A DNA stretch of 9,560 nucleotides from a virus (IMGVR_UViG_2529292985_000013:1-9560); one strand, 5' to 3'. Positions 3,829 through 8,844 are shown, counted from the stretch's first letter. The notes: generated from the sequence alone by a model not told the origin. Translations and numbers: made by a program.

Positions 3829-4095
3829 ATGTTGCATAGAGTTTTATGGAAAAGCGTTATTGTCGGCGCGATCTTGGCTATGTCTGGGTGTGCAATGGTG
3901 CAATACAACGACGGTGAAAAGGTAAGCATCCAGTCAGATGGCTGGTATGGGCTGGATAGTCTGCAAAAAACCGCAGATAAAGCCTGTCAGCAATATGGGA
4001 AGTCTAAAGCCGTATATCAGCATAGCGCGAACGCTAATCCCCATCTCGCGCCCGGTACGGGCGTTCAGAACACCATTTGGAAATGCGAACCATAA
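3829..4095 (+). CDS. Small secreted lipoprotein, 88-aa precursor
   Basis: ATG at 3829 (track ORF begins at an upstream TTG) with SD GAGGGGA 8 nt upstream. N-terminus MLHRVLWKSVIVGAILAMSGC has a positive n-region, hydrophobic core and lipobox-like LAMSG-C (signal peptidase II site). Mature part has 3 further Cys. Confidence 0.7.
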   Translation: MLHRVLWKSVIVGAILAMSGCAMVQYNDGEKVSIQSDGWYGLDSLQKTADKACQQYGKSKAVYQHSANANPHLAPGTGVQNTIWKCEP

Positions 4096-4134
4096 TGCTG
4101 GTGGCATCTTTGTTACAAAGAGGAACACCTGCTC

Positions 4135-4485
4135 TCAATGCAGGGGATGAGATTTAACGAAATCGATCACCCTATCCTGAACTTCAGAAAGAAGGTCTTT
4201 TTCATGCGCCAGGACGTCAGGATATTGACGTTCTGGCCTTACCAGATGCCGGAGCTTCCCATTAAGCAGAATGGCCTCAGAAAACACTTTTACGCTGTGC
4301 TTTATCCCCTCTGTTTCACTTTTCAGCGTCAAAATAAAGCGCAATTGCTTATTAGCCTGATTCGGATTCAATACACGAATTTGCAGTTCGTCTATGCTGT
4401 TTCGCAATGGGATTGATGCCACCACACTGGTGCTGTCTCTGATTGTCTGAATTGAACGGCTAACATTGAGAACGTTATTGTGCAT
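4135..4485 (-). CDS. Hypothetical protein, 116 aa, opposite strand to the surrounding gene block
   Basis: ATG-initiated ORF with purine-rich first codon positions. The overlapping + strand ORF (4138..4416) translates to an F/Y/Q-rich shadow-like sequence. Weak RBS (AGG only 3 nt from ATG) and rare codons (AGA, AGG, ATA, CGA) keep confidence low. Confidence 0.4.
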   Translation of the reverse strand: MHNNVLNVSRSIQTIRDSTSVVASIPLRNSIDELQIRVLNPNQANKQLRFILTLKSETEGIKHSVKVFSEAILLNGKLRHLVRPERQYPDVLAHEKDLLSEVQDRVIDFVKSHPLH

Positions 4486-4517
4486 GTGCCTGATCCACTA
4501 ACTCCTGGAGGTTTCTT

Positions 4518-4769
4518 GTGTCAGATCGAAATATAGCAGCTAAAAGCCAGGAAGAGCGAGACAAGGTGAACGTAGACCTTGCCGCCAGCGGCGTTGCTTA
4601 CAAAGAACGGCTGAATATACCTGTGATTGCAGAGCAGGTGGCCCGTGAGCAACCGGAAAACCTGCGCGCCTATTTCATGGAACGGCTACGGCACTACCGG
4701 CAGTTAAGCCTCCAGTTGCCAAAAGGGAGCGATCCGGTGTATCAGAACGAGGATGCACCAAAAAAATAA
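4518..4769 (+). CDS. hot: Homologue of DNA polymerase III theta subunit (HolE-like; P1 Hot-like)
   Basis: GTG start with SD GGAGG 7 nt upstream. The segment [43 protein letters not shown] closely parallels E. coli HolE ([43 protein letters not shown], recalled). Confidence 0.85.
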
Positions 4770-4854
4770 CGGCAAGATGGGGGAGAAATGTGATTAGCCC
4801 CCAGCGTTGCGCGCCTACAAATCCCGCTTTCACAAACTATGCCTTTTCAATGTA

Positions 4855-4874
4855 TACTGTATAAATAAACAGTA
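4855..4874 (+). promoter_or_regulatory. LexA (SOS) box overlapping a sigma70-like promoter for the humD-like gene
   Basis: TACTGTATAAATAAACAGTA is a perfect CTGT-N8-ACAG SOS box, nearly identical to the E. coli umuDC operator (recalled). It overlaps -10 TATACT (4853-4858); -35-like TTCACA at 4829-4834 (18-nt spacer); 18 nt upstream of the ATG at 4893. Confidence 0.85.
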
Positions 4875-4892
4875 TCATTGAGGTAAAACGCT

Positions 4893-5282
4893 ATGGGCTT
4901 CCCTTCTCCTGCGGCGGATTATGTTGAAAGCCGAATTTCTCTTGATCAGCAACTAATCAGGCATCCATCAGCAACCTACTTCATGCGGGCAGCTGATAGC
5001 CATCACCGTGAGGGAATATTGCAGGGTGCTTTGCTGGTGGTTGATTCCTCGCTTACTCCGGTTGATGGTTCTCTGCTTGTGTGCGCTATGGAGGGTGAAT
5101 ATCGCATAAAGAGATACAGGAAGTATCCGCGCCAGCACCTGGAGGATTTAAGCACCGGGAGGAAAGAGGCGTTACCAGTGGATGACGATGGATGCACGGG
5201 GAGTAATGCTGTTTTTGGTGTGATCACTCATGTCATCAATGATGTCCGAAGTGGGGAATTTGACGATTGTCCGGTGATTTAA
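4893..5282 (+). CDS. humD: UmuD' mimic: S24 peptidase-family UmuD homologue lacking the N-terminal arm (P1 HumD-like)
   Basis: Protein begins MGFPSPAADYVE, matching E. coli UmuD from Gly25 (first residue of processed UmuD'). An in-frame TAA at 4884-4886 precludes a longer N-terminus. Ser (ADSH) and Lys (RIKR) of the UmuD dyad are retained. Confidence 0.9.
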   Translation: MGFPSPAADYVESRISLDQQLIRHPSATYFMRAADSHHREGILQGALLVVDSSLTPVDGSLLVCAMEGEYRIKRYRKYPRQHLEDLSTGRKEALPVDDDGCTGSNAVFGVITHVINDVRSGEFDDCPVI

Positions 5283-5317
5283 GCTGCAAAGTGCTGGTGC
5301 TTTATACCTGTGAAGTT

Positions 5318-5346
5318 TATAGTTGTGTACACATAACGAGTACACG
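5318..5346 (+). promoter_or_regulatory. phd-doc promoter/operator region with tandem palindromic sites
   Basis: Perfect palindrome TGTGTACACA (5324-5333) and imperfect CGAGTACACG (5337-5346), 13 bp centre to centre, next to -10-like TATAGT (5318-5323), just upstream of the phd SD. Consistent with Phd/Doc autoregulation of P1 phd-doc (recalled). Confidence 0.6.
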
Positions 5347-5354
5347 AGGTGTTT

Positions 5355-5576
5355 ATGCAATCCATTAACTTCCGTACCGCGCGCGGCAACCTTTCTGAAG
5401 TGCTCAACAATGTTGAAGCCGGGGAAGAGGTTGAAATCACCCGCAGAGGCCGAGAGCCAGCAGTAATTGTCAGCAAGGCTACTTTTGAAGCCTACAAAAA
5501 AGCGGCGCTGGATGCTGAATTTGCATCCCTGTTTGACACCCTGGACTCCACCAACAAGGAACTGGTTAACCGATAA
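5355..5576 (+). CDS. phd: Phd/YefM-family antitoxin (prevent-host-death)
   Basis: ATG at 5355 with SD GAGG 6 nt upstream (track ORF starts at an upstream GTG). The 73-aa product [56 protein letters not shown]... matches P1 Phd as I recall it. Stop TAA overlaps the doc ATG (TAATG). Confidence 0.9.
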
Positions 5577-5956
5577 TGAGGCATATATCACCGGAAGAAC
5601 TTATTGCGCTTCATGATGCGAATATAAGCCGCTACGGCGGCCTGCCGGGAATGTCAGATCCGGGTAGGGCAGAGGCCATTATCGGGAGAGTTCAGGCCAG
5701 AGTTGCCTACGAAGAGATCACCGACCTTTTCGAAGTCTCCGCCACCTACCTGGTAGCTACGGCGAGAGGGCATATATTCAATGATGCCAATAAGCGTACC
5801 GCGCTAAACAGTGCGCTGCTATTTCTACGCCGTAACGGCATACAGGTATATGATTCTCCCGTGCTGGTGGAACTTGCGGTGGGGGCCGCAACTGGTGAAA
5901 TCCCCGTATCTTCAGTAGCGGAAAAACTACGTGAATTATTTGGTTCCAATATTTGA
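5576..5956 (+). CDS. doc: Doc toxin (Fic-fold kinase, death-on-curing)
   Basis: 126 aa coupled to phd. Contains the Doc-type Fic motif [11 protein letters not shown] (HxFx[DN][AG]NKR). Length and sequence match P1 Doc as recalled. Confidence 0.9.
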
Positions 5957-6039: not shown

Positions 6040-6840
6040 TTAGGCGTCAGCATCCTCCGCTACCTCTGCTTCAACATCAGCCACGGCTTCATCGGACGGT
6101 TCTTCTTTGGCCTGCTCTGCAATCGCCGCACGGCATTTGGCCCTTGCTGTGGCGATTGCTTCAGCACGCACATCATCAGGAATCATTGACGTGATATACA
6201 TATCCAGTTCTTCGGCGCGGAACACTGTTTGGTCCAGATATTCGCGTAGCATCCAGGTAAATTCGAAATCACACGCGATAATCTCTGCGCTACCTTCTGC
6301 ACCATTTGGGAAATGAATAAAAGCCTGTTTAGCCAAACCGATAACACGACATGCGGTTGCCAAAACAGCGGCAACCAGGTTTACATTTTCACACGCTACG
6401 GGCTGATTAACGCCGGAGATTACTCCATTTAACTGTCGGTTATATGGAAGGTAGTTTGAGATGCGTTCTACGCGCCATGTGCCAGTCAGGCTGCCATTCT
6501 TAAAGATAATTGGTGTAACGGATAGCCCAAGCTCGCGTATAAGTCGTTGCGCTATAGCAGGATCATTAAACATGTCTAATGCTACACATTCGAAAGACTG
6601 TGCAAGGGTAAACAGTTCTTCCAGAGAGTAGTCTTTGCCCCTGGCGGTGATGTAACGATGAACGCCGCTTTCTGCATCACTCCATATAGCTACGCCATGC
6701 TCTTCATTCAGCTCTTCATTAAAGCCGAGATACGTCATGATAGTACGTTCAATCGTGTCAAACGGCAGTGACATGTCGGCGTTAACAGCCACCAGCAGGC
6801 CATTACGCAAGCGGTATTGAATTGCTTTAGTATTTTCCAC
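6040..6840 (-). CDS. Hypothetical protein, 266 aa, with strongly acidic Ala/Glu/Asp-rich C-terminal tail
   Basis: Long ORF with GTG start at 6840, 6 nt after the upstream stop, SD-like GGAG 9 nt upstream. No recognisable catalytic motif (no P-loop, no HxH). C-terminal ~40 aa are low-complexity acidic (EEPSDEAVADVEAEVAEDADA). Confidence 0.7.
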   Translation of the reverse strand: MENTKAIQYRLRNGLLVAVNADMSLPFDTIERTIMTYLGFNEELNEEHGVAIWSDAESGVHRYITARGKDYSLEELFTLAQSFECVALDMFNDPAIAQRLIRELGLSVTPIIFKNGSLTGTWRVERISNYLPYNRQLNGVISGVNQPVACENVNLVAAVLATACRVIGLAKQAFIHFPNGAEGSAEIIACDFEFTWMLREYLDQTVFRAEELDMYITSMIPDDVRAEAIATARAKCRAAIAEQAKEEPSDEAVADVEAEVAEDADA

Positions 6841-6846
6841 GTTAAA

Positions 6847-7509
6847 TCACTCCACTACAAACCAGTCACATGCCAGCAAGTCGCCTACAGAAGGCAACCA
6901 CGGAACAACTACACCTTGTGCATTTTTTAAGGCGAAATAAGCACCATACGGAACGAGATCGCCGGGGAAATATCCCTTAATGGCTTCCATTCGTGCCGGG
7001 TACTGTCCTTCAGGAACCAGCCAGCAGAATTGGTTTTCGCCGTTCCACCCGCGCCGGGCAACTTTCTTGCCATCCTTCAGCCACATCAGCGCGTCAGAAA
7101 AGTCGGCTGCTTCAAGGTCGATTTCTTCTTGTAGAGTAGCGATACCGCCAGCAGAAATAGTTACGTCCCTGGCTGTAATGAATGTCACCCCATTGTGACC
7201 TTCAATGCTGAGCGATACCCCATTTTCGGAGGCGTCGTTAACCCGGCTATAGCATTTTTCAAATGCTTTCTCTGGCACATAGACCAGATAGCCATTTTCA
7301 GCAGTGACGAGATATCCTCCTATTTGCGGTCGGAATTTTTCCAAGAACACACCATCAACACGAAGCGTCATTCCTTTTGGCTCAACGACTTCGATACTGC
7401 CAAAAATGGGCGCATAAGCTTTGCCGACAATAACAATATCTTTGATTTTCGATGCCCGAATGATGCTGTGGCATTTGTATTTGGGGAACACCTGAAAAGT
7501 GCTGACCAT
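6847..7509 (-). CDS. Two-domain protein, 220 aa: N-terminal ~135-aa domain of unknown function fused to a C-terminal DUF2829/Tad2-like domain
   Basis: ATG with SD AGGAAGG upstream. The C-terminal ~85 aa (FSDALMWLKDGKKVARRGWNGENQFCWLVPEG...VVVPWLPSVGDLLACDWFVVE) fit my recollection of the DUF2829 pattern (ALxxLKxGKKVxRxGWNG ... WxPSxxDLLAxDW), the family of Thoeris anti-defence Tad2. Confidence 0.75.
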   Translation of the reverse strand: MVSTFQVFPKYKCHSIIRASKIKDIVIVGKAYAPIFGSIEVVEPKGMTLRVDGVFLEKFRPQIGGYLVTAENGYLVYVPEKAFEKCYSRVNDASENGVSLSIEGHNGVTFITARDVTISAGGIATLQEEIDLEAADFSDALMWLKDGKKVARRGWNGENQFCWLVPEGQYPARMEAIKGYFPGDLVPYGAYFALKNAQGVVVPWLPSVGDLLACDWFVVE

Positions 7510-7523
7510 AATCCTTCCTCTAC

Positions 7524-8018
7524 TTAAAACTTTGCGTACTGAAGCGGTGTACGCTTGATTTCAACGCGGTCTTCCGATGTGCTACCAAAGCCACCAGCGC
7601 CTCGCTCTGTTTCATCGAGTTCATCAACTTCTACCAGCGATACCGGTTCAACACGCTCAAAAATGCCTTGCATGACCGCCATTCCTGGCTTGAGGCAAAC
7701 GCCTTCACCACCGGGATCTGTAATCAGTTTTGCCATGATTTCACCGCGATAATCGGAGTCGATAATTCCTACGCAGTTAGCCAGGCGAGTATGTTTTTTG
7801 CAGCCCAATCCGGAACGCGGATAGAGTTTCAGACACCAGCCGGGCGGGATCTCCATAGCCAGTCCGGTGTACACCCACCAGCTTGAGGAAATTGCACCAT
7901 TGCTATCGACACATGGTTTTATTTCAACAGCCTCAAAATCCATCGCCGCCGATCCGGAGGTGGCATAAGCTGGAAGTTTTGCTGCCGGATGTAGGCGTTT
8001 CACTTTTACGTAAATCAT
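7524..8018 (-). CDS. dut: Trimeric dUTPase homologue (deoxyuridine triphosphatase) with divergent motif IV and short C-terminal extension
   Basis: ATG overlaps the upstream stop (ATGA). Motifs: I PAYATSGSAAMDF, II PRSGL, III GIIDSDYRGE, V ERGAGGFGSTS. Motif IV reads GMAVMQ where E. coli Dut has GERIAQ (Arg replaced). About 15 extra residues follow motif V. Confidence 0.85.
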   Translation of the reverse strand: MIYVKVKRLHPAAKLPAYATSGSAAMDFEAVEIKPCVDSNGAISSSWWVYTGLAMEIPPGWCLKLYPRSGLGCKKHTRLANCVGIIDSDYRGEIMAKLITDPGGEGVCLKPGMAVMQGIFERVEPVSLVEVDELDETERGAGGFGSTSEDRVEIKRTPLQYAKF

Positions 8019-8491
8019 TGTTTTTTAGCTCTCTGCGTGAAGGTGTAAACCCGACGTTTGATATGTGGAACGGTAGGAACAGGAATACAGGAACTTTCAA
8101 TAACTCCTTGCTCCTCCAGCGATCGCACCGCCCGCAAGAACTGCGACGTGTCGCCGCCAAACTGGCGGGCATAGGTGCTGCCGTTATGAAGTATTTGAGC
8201 TATTACCCGAGCTTTTGTCTGGCTGTCACGATATGCGAATAGCCGCACGGCCTCTTCTGGCGCAATCGATAACTGATAGCCTTTACCGGCACGGTGTCGA
8301 ATGAATCCATGCGCCAGTAGGTTTTTGAGTTCGTTACGAGTGCGAACAGATCCGTAATCCAGGAAGTGTGGATTGATAACGACTGGCTTAAACCATTCCG
8401 TAGGTGCTTTAGCTAATAGAGCTAACAGCTTCCCGGACAATCCTGGATAGGAAGACGGGTAACAATTCAGAGATGGGTAATAAGTTTTCAC
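8015..8491 (-). CDS. Hypothetical protein, 158 aa, possible winged-helix DNA-binding segments; no internal Met
   Basis: GTG start overlapping the upstream stop (GTGA), preceded by AGGGGG. The protein has no internal Met, so a non-ATG start is obligatory. Segments LLALLAKAPTEW...RTRNELKNLLAHGFIRH and STYARQFGGDTSQFLRAVRSLEEQGVIES look like HTH/winged-helix recognition regions (inference). Confidence 0.6.
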   Translation of the reverse strand: MKTYYPSLNCYPSSYPGLSGKLLALLAKAPTEWFKPVVINPHFLDYGSVRTRNELKNLLAHGFIRHRAGKGYQLSIAPEEAVRLFAYRDSQTKARVIAQILHNGSTYARQFGGDTSQFLRAVRSLEEQGVIESSCIPVPTVPHIKRRVYTFTQRAKKQ

Positions 8492-8844
8492 CGACGCCCC
8501 CTTGCCGGATATCGACCTGCATTAGTATCCGGTGCAATAAAGCCGGTAGTGGGGCGAGTGAAAGCGAGATTAATCTTCTCGACCATAGTGCGATAATTTT
8601 CCTGATAGTGGGCCAGGAGTTTTTCGGCGGCAATGATGGTTACTTTCCGGACGTAGCTTTCTGCTTCCTCCAGATTTCGCCAGTTTTTTTCGAGGGTAAA
8701 CACAGGGACGGCCTCAAGCCCGGTCATGATGCCGAATACAACGACAGCATGACTGTTCTTAACACCAGCGGCGAAGGTTACGGTGTAACCATCCACCGTG
8801 AAGCGTCTTGATTCCGTGATTTGACTCTGCAAAGCACCCTCCAA
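8488..8844 (-). CDS. Small hypothetical protein, ~114-118 aa, first gene of the leftward operon
   Basis: Frame is open only from TTG at 8844 (in-frame stop 6 codons further upstream); no ATG is available. A second TTG at 8832 sits 5 nt after a GGAGGG SD-like sequence and may be the true start. Function unknown. Confidence 0.5.
   Translation of the reverse strand: MEGALQSQITESRRFTVDGYTVTFAAGVKNSHAVVVFGIMTGLEAVPVFTLEKNWRNLEEAESYVRKVTIIAAEKLLAHYQENYRTMVEKINLAFTRPTTGFIAPDTNAGRYPARGRR

Follow-up and report, generated by a model that had tools for sequence, protein, structure and literature searches.

A likely two-module anti-defence protein of a D6-like Escherichia coli phage-plasmid joins a Tad2-family domain to a Dec-related OB-fold

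In a D6-like phage-plasmid of Escherichia coli, a gene already annotated in RefSeq for its DUF2829 domain codes for a protein of 220 aa in which a Tad2-family domain takes up only the C-terminal 40%, whereas ModTad2, the closest characterised relative of this domain, is a single-domain protein of 89 aa. What the rest of the protein is, and what it might add to a sponge of immune signals, is the question raised by this locus. The original prediction was a fusion of a C-terminal DUF2829/Tad2-like domain with a novel N-terminal domain of about 135 residues, free of recognisable motifs, that could provide a second ligand specificity, an enzymatic activity or a targeting function. Besides the gene and its Tad2 domain, Tad2 fusions as such were known beforehand, since multi-domain proteins of the types Acb4-Tad2 and Tad2-Sequestin have been documented (bioRxiv 10.1101/2025.07.12.664507).

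The whole stretch of DNA analysed here (the window, 9,560 nucleotides) comes from a D6-like phage-plasmid of E. coli and has 100% identity to plasmid NZ_CP061103 over 2.9 kb and 97% identity to phage D6. The predicted reading frame was borne out (6847..7509, minus strand, 220 aa, ATG start); it is 100% identical to its counterpart in NZ_CP061103, is matched by PHROG 872 over the full length of the protein (E=6e-52) and has a strong Shine-Dalgarno sequence ahead of its ATG (GAGGAAGGATT-ATG). On the minus strand the genes follow each other in the order cre-like recombinase, two small genes, dUTPase (dut), ORF 6847-7509 and an isaA-like gene (Table 1). The ORF begins 14 nt past the dUTPase stop and ends 6 nt ahead of the GTG of the isaA-like gene, and with such short gaps on both sides we consider it a member of this operon. 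The c1-cre-...-dut-DUF2829-isaA order of the window is repeated in another D6-like contig (P0085), and the dut-DUF2829 order is found also in D6. The isaA-like gene adjoins the DUF2829 gene in the window, D6, SJ46, RCS47 and a D6-like metagenomic contig and thus accompanies the Tad2 gene as a conserved member of the operon; its 266-aa product gave zero matches in Pfam, NCBIfam and PADLOC.

Table 1. Features of the DUF2829 gene and of its operon neighbours in the window
Feature	Position	Strand	Basis
CDS, 220 aa + stop codon	6847..7509	-	ORF list; RefSeq 'DUF2829 domain-containing protein'
Ribosome-binding site (GTAGAGGAAGGATT), between dut stop codon and ATG	7510..7523	-	read from sequence
dUTPase, upstream operon partner	7524..8018	-	Pfam PF00692, E=1.3e-13
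isaA-like protein, 266 aa, downstream operon partner	6040..6840	-	phrog_2326, E=8e-135
N-terminal OB-fold domain akin to Dec, residues 8-92; a diverged copy within a large phage family that has no name	7234..7488	-	
Variable linker, residues 93-132 (ASENGVSLSIEGHNGVTFITARDVTISAGGIATLQEEIDL)	7114..7233	-	pLDDT <50
Tad2-family (DUF2829) sponge domain, residues 133-220	6850..7113	-	Pfam, phmmer against PDB, Foldseek, dN/dS
Pocket loop W155-N156-G157 (HgmTad2 W21-N22-G23, SPO1 W25-N26)	7039..7047	-	alignments; translation checked
Pocket segment W204-L205-P-S207-V-G-D210 (HgmTad2 W87-L88-x-S90-x-T92-D93, SPO1 W73...D79)	6880..6900	-	alignments; translation checked

The surroundings of this operon contain several other genes. 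The pair of small genes that separates the cre-like recombinase from dut (8015-8844, minus strand) codes for proteins of 158 aa (phrog_6669) and 118 aa (phrog_1968); both genes are kept in D6-like elements, and every library searched was devoid of a functional annotation for either. On the plus strand, 5349-5956 holds a phd/doc toxin-antitoxin pair, 4893-5282 a UmuD'-like HumD and 4518-4769 Hot, a homologue of the DNA polymerase III theta subunit, all of them as in P1 and ordinary for such elements. The DUF2829/isaA locus is also a repeated target of insertion sequences. IS26 splits the gene in phage RCS47 (L003 4007-4624), and the very name isaA (insertion-associated in the P1 annotation) comes from an IS1 insertion in P1. 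As the locus has been hit repeatedly, some P1-like elements are left without an intact copy.

The C-terminal domain turned out to be real. Residues 136-219 matched the Pfam family PF11195 (Tad2-like) over positions 2-73 of the 73 in the profile, with E=2.1e-22 and 79.9 bits for a cut-off of 25, and a phmmer search of the PDB retrieved ModTad2 (9eib, 8.3e-21), HgmTad2/AcrIIA7 (3.4e-12) and SPO1 Tad2 (2.6e-9). An AlphaFold2 model built with 31 homologues reached a pLDDT of about 80-90 over residues 133-220 and displayed the features of the Tad2 fold, namely an N-terminal helix, an antiparallel beta-sheet and short loop helices. When this model was compared by Foldseek with the solved structures 9eib, 8v3e, 8kbi and 8smf, E values ranged from 7.6e-9 to 1e-5 and target TM scores from 0.63 to 0.89. 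Profile search and structure prediction, the two computational checks proposed along with the original prediction, therefore both came out in its favour as far as this domain is concerned. The closest characterised relative of residues 132-220 is ModTad2 (also MoTad2) from a Myroides odoratus prophage (PDB 9EIB, 8V3E), with 46% identity (E=8e-21), equal length and an insertion after beta2 common to both, which aligns with one 1-residue gap only. SPO1 Tad2 and HgmTad2/AcrIIA7 (PDB 8SME-G, 8KBI-M) share the Pfam family, the fold and the gcADPR pocket residues with the window domain but only 32-36% identity, and HgmTad2 has a longer, cGG-binding insertion that is absent from the window protein. 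Judged by sequence and predicted structure, residues 133-220 are a member of the Tad2 family closest to ModTad2.

In SPO1 Tad2, gcADPR is held by W25/N26/W73/D79, and in HgmTad2 by W21/N22/G23/W87/L88/S90/D93 (bioRxiv 10.1101/2023.11.15.567273, 10.1101/2023.05.01.538930). In the alignment to both proteins the corresponding pocket residues W155, N156, G157, W204, L205, S207 and D210 are all intact, T92 of HgmTad2 being replaced by G209, and W155, W204, S207 and D210 are invariant across the 31 homologues. Across eight plasmid alleles the dN/dS of the domain was 0-0.14, a range obtained from small substitution counts in recombining alleles, and on this measure the Tad2 domain is under strong purifying selection. 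Within the alignment of close relatives, the insertion after beta2 (window residues 166-190) comes in three versions, one ModTad2-like, one about 8 residues longer and one about 17 residues shorter, the last of which carries N156K in the pocket loop. These loop and N156 variants suggest that ligand specificity is still diversifying inside a single plasmid family.

The N-terminal part is a different matter, since here the fusion stood and the single novel domain of 135 residues did not. Model and alignments rule out residues 1-135 as one domain and give instead a 92-aa OB-fold (residues 8-92) followed by a variable linker. Modelled alone, residues 8-92 reached a pLDDT of 88.4 and a pTM of 0.78. 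The following segment, residues 93-132, has two alleles in close relatives and is beta-like, helical or missing among relatives in general, which is why we treat it as a linker. The order of elements in the OB domain (beta0, beta1-3, alphaOB, beta4-5 and a C-terminal helix) agrees with the published topology of Dec, the capsid decoration protein of phage L (PDB 6E3C), with which it has in common the extra beta0 strand, the C-terminal helix and the motif P-x-GGYL...G-L-Y...AFE--Y. A single-sequence phmmer search matched Dec with E=0.0019, the profile of the N-domain with E=3.7e-4 over residues 21-89, and hhalign with 96% probability; by sequence, profile and modelled structure alike, Dec is the closest solved relative of the N-domain. 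Dec continues into a C-terminal, three-stranded, trimerising beta-helix spike and decorates P22/L capsids. In the window protein this type of spike is absent, the segment after the OB-fold being variable, modelled with pLDDT <50 and dissimilar to the Dec C-terminus before Tad2 follows as the C-terminal partner, and the gene lies in an accessory operon.

The claim that residues 1-135 lack a recognisable motif was right for the curated libraries, as no model of Pfam (E<=1), NCBIfam or PADLOC matched them, and the PHROGs that match the N-domain family (872, 11049, 9467 and 32732) are all labelled 'unknown function'. Compared with the known sponges (the Tad1/Acb2 hairpin PF24729, Acb4 PF13876, Sequestin PF21825, Lockin and TadIV-1), the N-domain presented no profile or structural similarity. 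Its identity with Lockin was ruled out from the published description of Lockin and from the absence of Lockin from sequenced phages. Nothing points to an enzyme either, contrary to one of the functions originally suggested for this part. The window N-domain has a pI of 9.15. A fold search in BFVD retrieved only uncharacterised phage proteins and one fusion of the OB domain to a MazG-like pyrophosphatase (A0A384WK77, 394 aa, Vibrio phage KF6; phrog_37613), which is another link of the OB family to nucleotide chemistry.

Nor is the OB-fold unique to this protein: its family comprises several thousand phage proteins and is homologous to the Dec OB-fold. When the N-domain profile was searched exhaustively, 4,923 cluster representatives passed a threshold of E<=1e-3, and 2,668 passed E<=1e-10, counts slightly inflated by adhesin artefacts. 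These artefacts (P0121-P0124 and P0139, with 12-28 partial matches each) top the list of hits and could be taken for giant repeat relatives, but they are spurious, being Big_9/cadherin (Ig-like) adhesins matched over the beta4-beta5 hairpin only. With a profile made from the standalone members the yield was 4,587 proteins, of which the 120 best-scoring ones are all 81-131 aa long and have neither a Pfam domain nor a name. We have then a family of about 4,600-4,900 clusters that is unnamed, has no model in Pfam or NCBIfam and consists mostly of standalone small phage proteins. About 20 of its positions are near-invariant (in window numbering P9, Y11, H14, K15, V17, A19, I22, H59, P61, G64, G65, Y66, V68, Y70, D72, G73, Y74, S76, S78, P79, F83, E84, G86 and Y87). 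Since the polar and aromatic residues among them are near-invariant across very different hosts, a universal small ligand fits the family better than a host-specific protein does, and by this reasoning its members probably bind a conserved small ligand.

The partners of the family tell more about its possible role. Among its best 142 representatives the domain is standalone (<=130 aa) in 63, N-terminal in 65, C-terminal in 14 and internal in 2, and the Pfam families found next to it are Sequestin (PF21825, n=12), Tad2 (PF11195, n=11) and Acb4 (PF13876, n=3), any other match in this set being marginal and single (two cases). Clustering of the leftover sequence of the same 142 proteins gave one recurrent group, made of the Tad2/Sequestin/Acb4 modules, plus singletons. 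Tad2, Sequestin and Acb4 are immune-signal sponges commonly fused with one another, and Sequestin was itself discovered through the Pfam families fused to Tad2 and Acb4 (Tal et al.). Lacking a Pfam model, the OB family would be invisible to fusion screens of this kind. The sponge-sponge fusions described (Acb4-Tad2 in Pasteurella phage Pm86, Tad2-Sequestin, and Acb4-Sequestin in Pseudomonas phage Ab09) also put small anti-signalling modules together in one polypeptide, and the OB family offers parallels in OB+Tad2+Sequestin relatives of the window protein and in OB+Acb4 and OB+Sequestin+Acb4 proteins elsewhere in the family; the difference is that the partner in the window protein is an OB-fold outside Pfam and outside the recognised sponge families. 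By April 2026 the latter were Tad1, Tad2, Acb2, Acb4, Sequestin, Lockin and TadIV-1, none of which has an OB-fold, and no OB-fold sponge turned up in a search of the literature. A Dec-related OB partner family whose only recurrent partners, among its best 142 representatives, are sponge modules thus appears to be undescribed. Because these are its sole recurrent partners in that set, we regard the family as a candidate anti-defence module, and it is probably a further anti-signalling one. Generic traits of sponges are a short phage protein, homo-oligomerisation and positively charged pockets at the interfaces (Tal et al.); of these, shortness and a phage origin hold for the standalone OB members, at 81-130 aa.

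The genomic context of the family members was compared as well. SopranoGao-like Klebsiella phages have one early-operon slot that is occupied by OB+Tad2, by OB+Tad2+Sequestin, or by an Acb2/Tad1-hairpin gene followed by OB+Tad2, and that looks like an anti-signalling hotspot resembling the one reported for N4-like phages. This slot (around 3900-5900 in the contigs L017, L018 and L020) sits downstream of a divergent pair of HTH_92 regulators. The standalone OB genes are found among runs of small unnamed phage genes, outside the head modules. Known sponges were neighbours in one of five such contexts, where Tad2 and Acb4, each as a standalone gene, share an operon with the standalone OB gene and are at most four genes away from it, and were missing in the other four, so that the context of the standalone members lends weak support to an anti-signalling role. 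A few database records name members of the OB family "capsid decoration protein", presumably by their similarity to Dec.

Taken together, we tentatively put forward, as a possibility and not as our expectation, that the unnamed Dec-related OB family is an anti-signalling module swapped among Tad2, Acb4 and Sequestin fusions, acting either as a new sponge or as a capsid-binding arm. If so, a capsid-binding arm would mask the coat protein from TIR sensors or set the sponge at the source of the signal, and Dec would have branched off from an anti-defence family as a structural protein, or vice versa.

For the family, then, a role in targeting or in the recognition of a second ligand is plausible, as had been suggested for the window protein. 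For the copy in the window such roles are less assured, as six near-invariant polar residues are lost in it and sister elements have dropped the domain while keeping Tad2. The departures of the window N-domain from the family consensus are K15S, H59F, Y70A, D72N, S76V, S78V and G86C, the polar residues lost being K15, H59, Y70, D72, S76 and S78. Seven distant OB+Tad2 fusions (P0055, P0056, P0060, P0094, P0095, P0097 and P0100) retain the full consensus, and another one (P0101) retains it except at one position (G65K). As to the sister elements, the orthologue in phage D6 (L001 6759-7199, 146 aa) has an in-frame deletion that coincides exactly with the OB core (K15 to N96); its first ~20 residues remain, followed by linker and Tad2 domain. 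A second deletion is found in E. coli as a natural dUTPase-Tad2 fusion of 241 aa (P0054, 15 member sequences) from which the OB-fold is gone and in which linker and Tad2 are kept, with endpoints at 'ERGAGG' near the C-terminus of dut and at 'SAGG' in the DUF2829 linker. Databases name this protein 'dUTP diphosphatase'. The linker is the junction for both deletions. Since the OB domain has been lost at least twice, in D6 and in the dUTPase fusion, Tad2 is the part always kept, and the OB arm is dispensable, in this lineage. On this comparison of sequences, the OB arm of the window copy is taken as accessory and not as the core function, and it is probably altered or decaying.

The same asymmetry is found within the plasmids. 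The Tad2 domain is near-identical among E. coli and Salmonella plasmids, yet it is combined there with three divergent alleles of the N-domain and two of the linker. The dS is 0.65-0.75 in the N-domain and 0.05-0.19 in Tad2, a difference that shows recombination near the domain boundary and a mosaic history. The dN/dS, from the same small counts and recombining alleles, is 0.35-0.45 in the N-domain against the low values of Tad2 given above, evolution being 3-5 times faster in the OB domain than in Tad2. As regards length, no form is commoner than the full-length one of 220 aa (P0001, 197 member sequences), and truncated variants of 158-167 aa exist among the homologues. A 281-aa 'longer version' in SJ46 is most simply the result of an upstream start-codon call, since the homology starts at an internal MNNM.

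The reading that we prefer, and that we think reasonably likely to be right, is that of an anti-defence protein with two modules, encoded by a D6-like phage-plasmid of E. coli and made of a Tad2 core that would sequester an ADPR-derived signal and of an accessory, probably altered OB arm. ModTad2 sequesters His-ADPR, the signal of type II Thoeris, and has another pocket for cUMP/cCMP. The window Tad2 domain would form a homotetramer, as the solved Tad2 proteins do, and would hold an ADPR-derived signal produced by TIR proteins, with His-ADPR or gcADPR as the likeliest candidates, a ligand identity extrapolated from a relative (ModTad2) at 46% identity. Thoeris-type immunity would then stay untriggered on infection by the element or on its induction, and the assembled protein may be pictured as a Tad2 tetramer core with four flexible OB arms. 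About one quarter of the tested sponge homologues blocked none of seven systems, and membership in the Tad2 family is therefore no guarantee of anti-Thoeris activity. It also counts against this main reading that the OB-fold of Dec is a monomeric protein-binding leg with no ligand pocket.

What the OB arm does, if anything, can be read in other ways. It might have no function of its own in this element and be just a decaying N-terminal extension, still folded, that the Tad2 tetramer tolerates. The loss of the six invariant polar residues goes in this direction, as do the two independent deletions with the truncated variants of 158-167 aa, and the comparison between the window and another member of its clade (L010), which gave 0 synonymous and 7 non-synonymous differences. 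Against it, the dN/dS between alleles has not risen to 1 (0.35-0.45), a confident model of the domain is still obtained, the full-length form is the commonest, and the substitutions converge on Dec-like residues and look non-random. We consider this unlikely.

At the opposite end, the window protein could be a truly bifunctional sponge, its OB domain forming an oligomeric sponge of its own that takes up a second immune signal, in the manner of the Acb4-Tad2 fusions, so that one polypeptide would block two signalling systems. But the window copy is without K15, H59, Y70, D72, S76 and S78, D6 and the dUTPase fusion dropped the domain yet kept the gene, and the OB-fold of Dec, the closest solved relative, is monomeric. 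For this particular copy the idea is decidedly unlikely.

By analogy with Dec, the domain might also be a targeting arm that binds a protein surface, for instance the capsid or coat of the element itself, so masking the capsid from TIR sensors or positioning the sponge. Dec is the nearest solved relative in sequence, profile and structure, and the window allele is more Dec-like than the core family: its single sequence matches Dec with E=0.0019, compared with E=0.0072 for the core-family profile, and its substitutions (F59 and the hydrophobic residues at 76 and 78) are Dec-like. Major capsid proteins can activate Thoeris TIR proteins (PMC12578639), and an OB leg followed by a C-terminal oligomerising module parallels the Dec tripod. 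However, the gene is located in an accessory/early operon with dut and cre and not in a head module, the members of the family in other phages are also among small accessory genes, the linker is neither conserved nor similar to the trimeric spike of Dec, and Dec coats the outside of mature P22-like capsids, which are unrelated to P1/D6 heads. A targeting arm of this type appears to us very unlikely.

Finally, it is highly improbable that the DUF2829 domain acts not on Thoeris but as an AcrIIA7-like anti-CRISPR or as a toxin: AcrIIA7 does belong to DUF2829 and two plasmid homologues bear a toxin-antitoxin toxin label, but Li et al. failed to reproduce the Acr activity of HgmTad2/AcrIIA7 and showed a sponge, the NCBIfam search gave no match for the window protein, and the pocket residues for the ADPR signal are conserved. 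The label in question ('MW1434 family type I TA system toxin', assigned by PGAP to the plasmid homologues H90 and H105) conflicts with their assignment as Tad2-like.

Sponge proteins are a main route by which phages and plasmids disarm the signalling immunity of Thoeris, CBASS and Pycsar, and new sponge families have repeatedly revealed new immune signals. The OB family is from this point of view a concrete and cheap candidate for anti-defence assays, a lead that is tempered by the degenerate copy in the window. As for the elements themselves, D6/P1-like phage-plasmids are common in E. coli and Salmonella, sometimes with resistance genes, and they hold a well-preserved, predicted ModTad2-like sponge in a conserved dut-Tad2-isaA operon.
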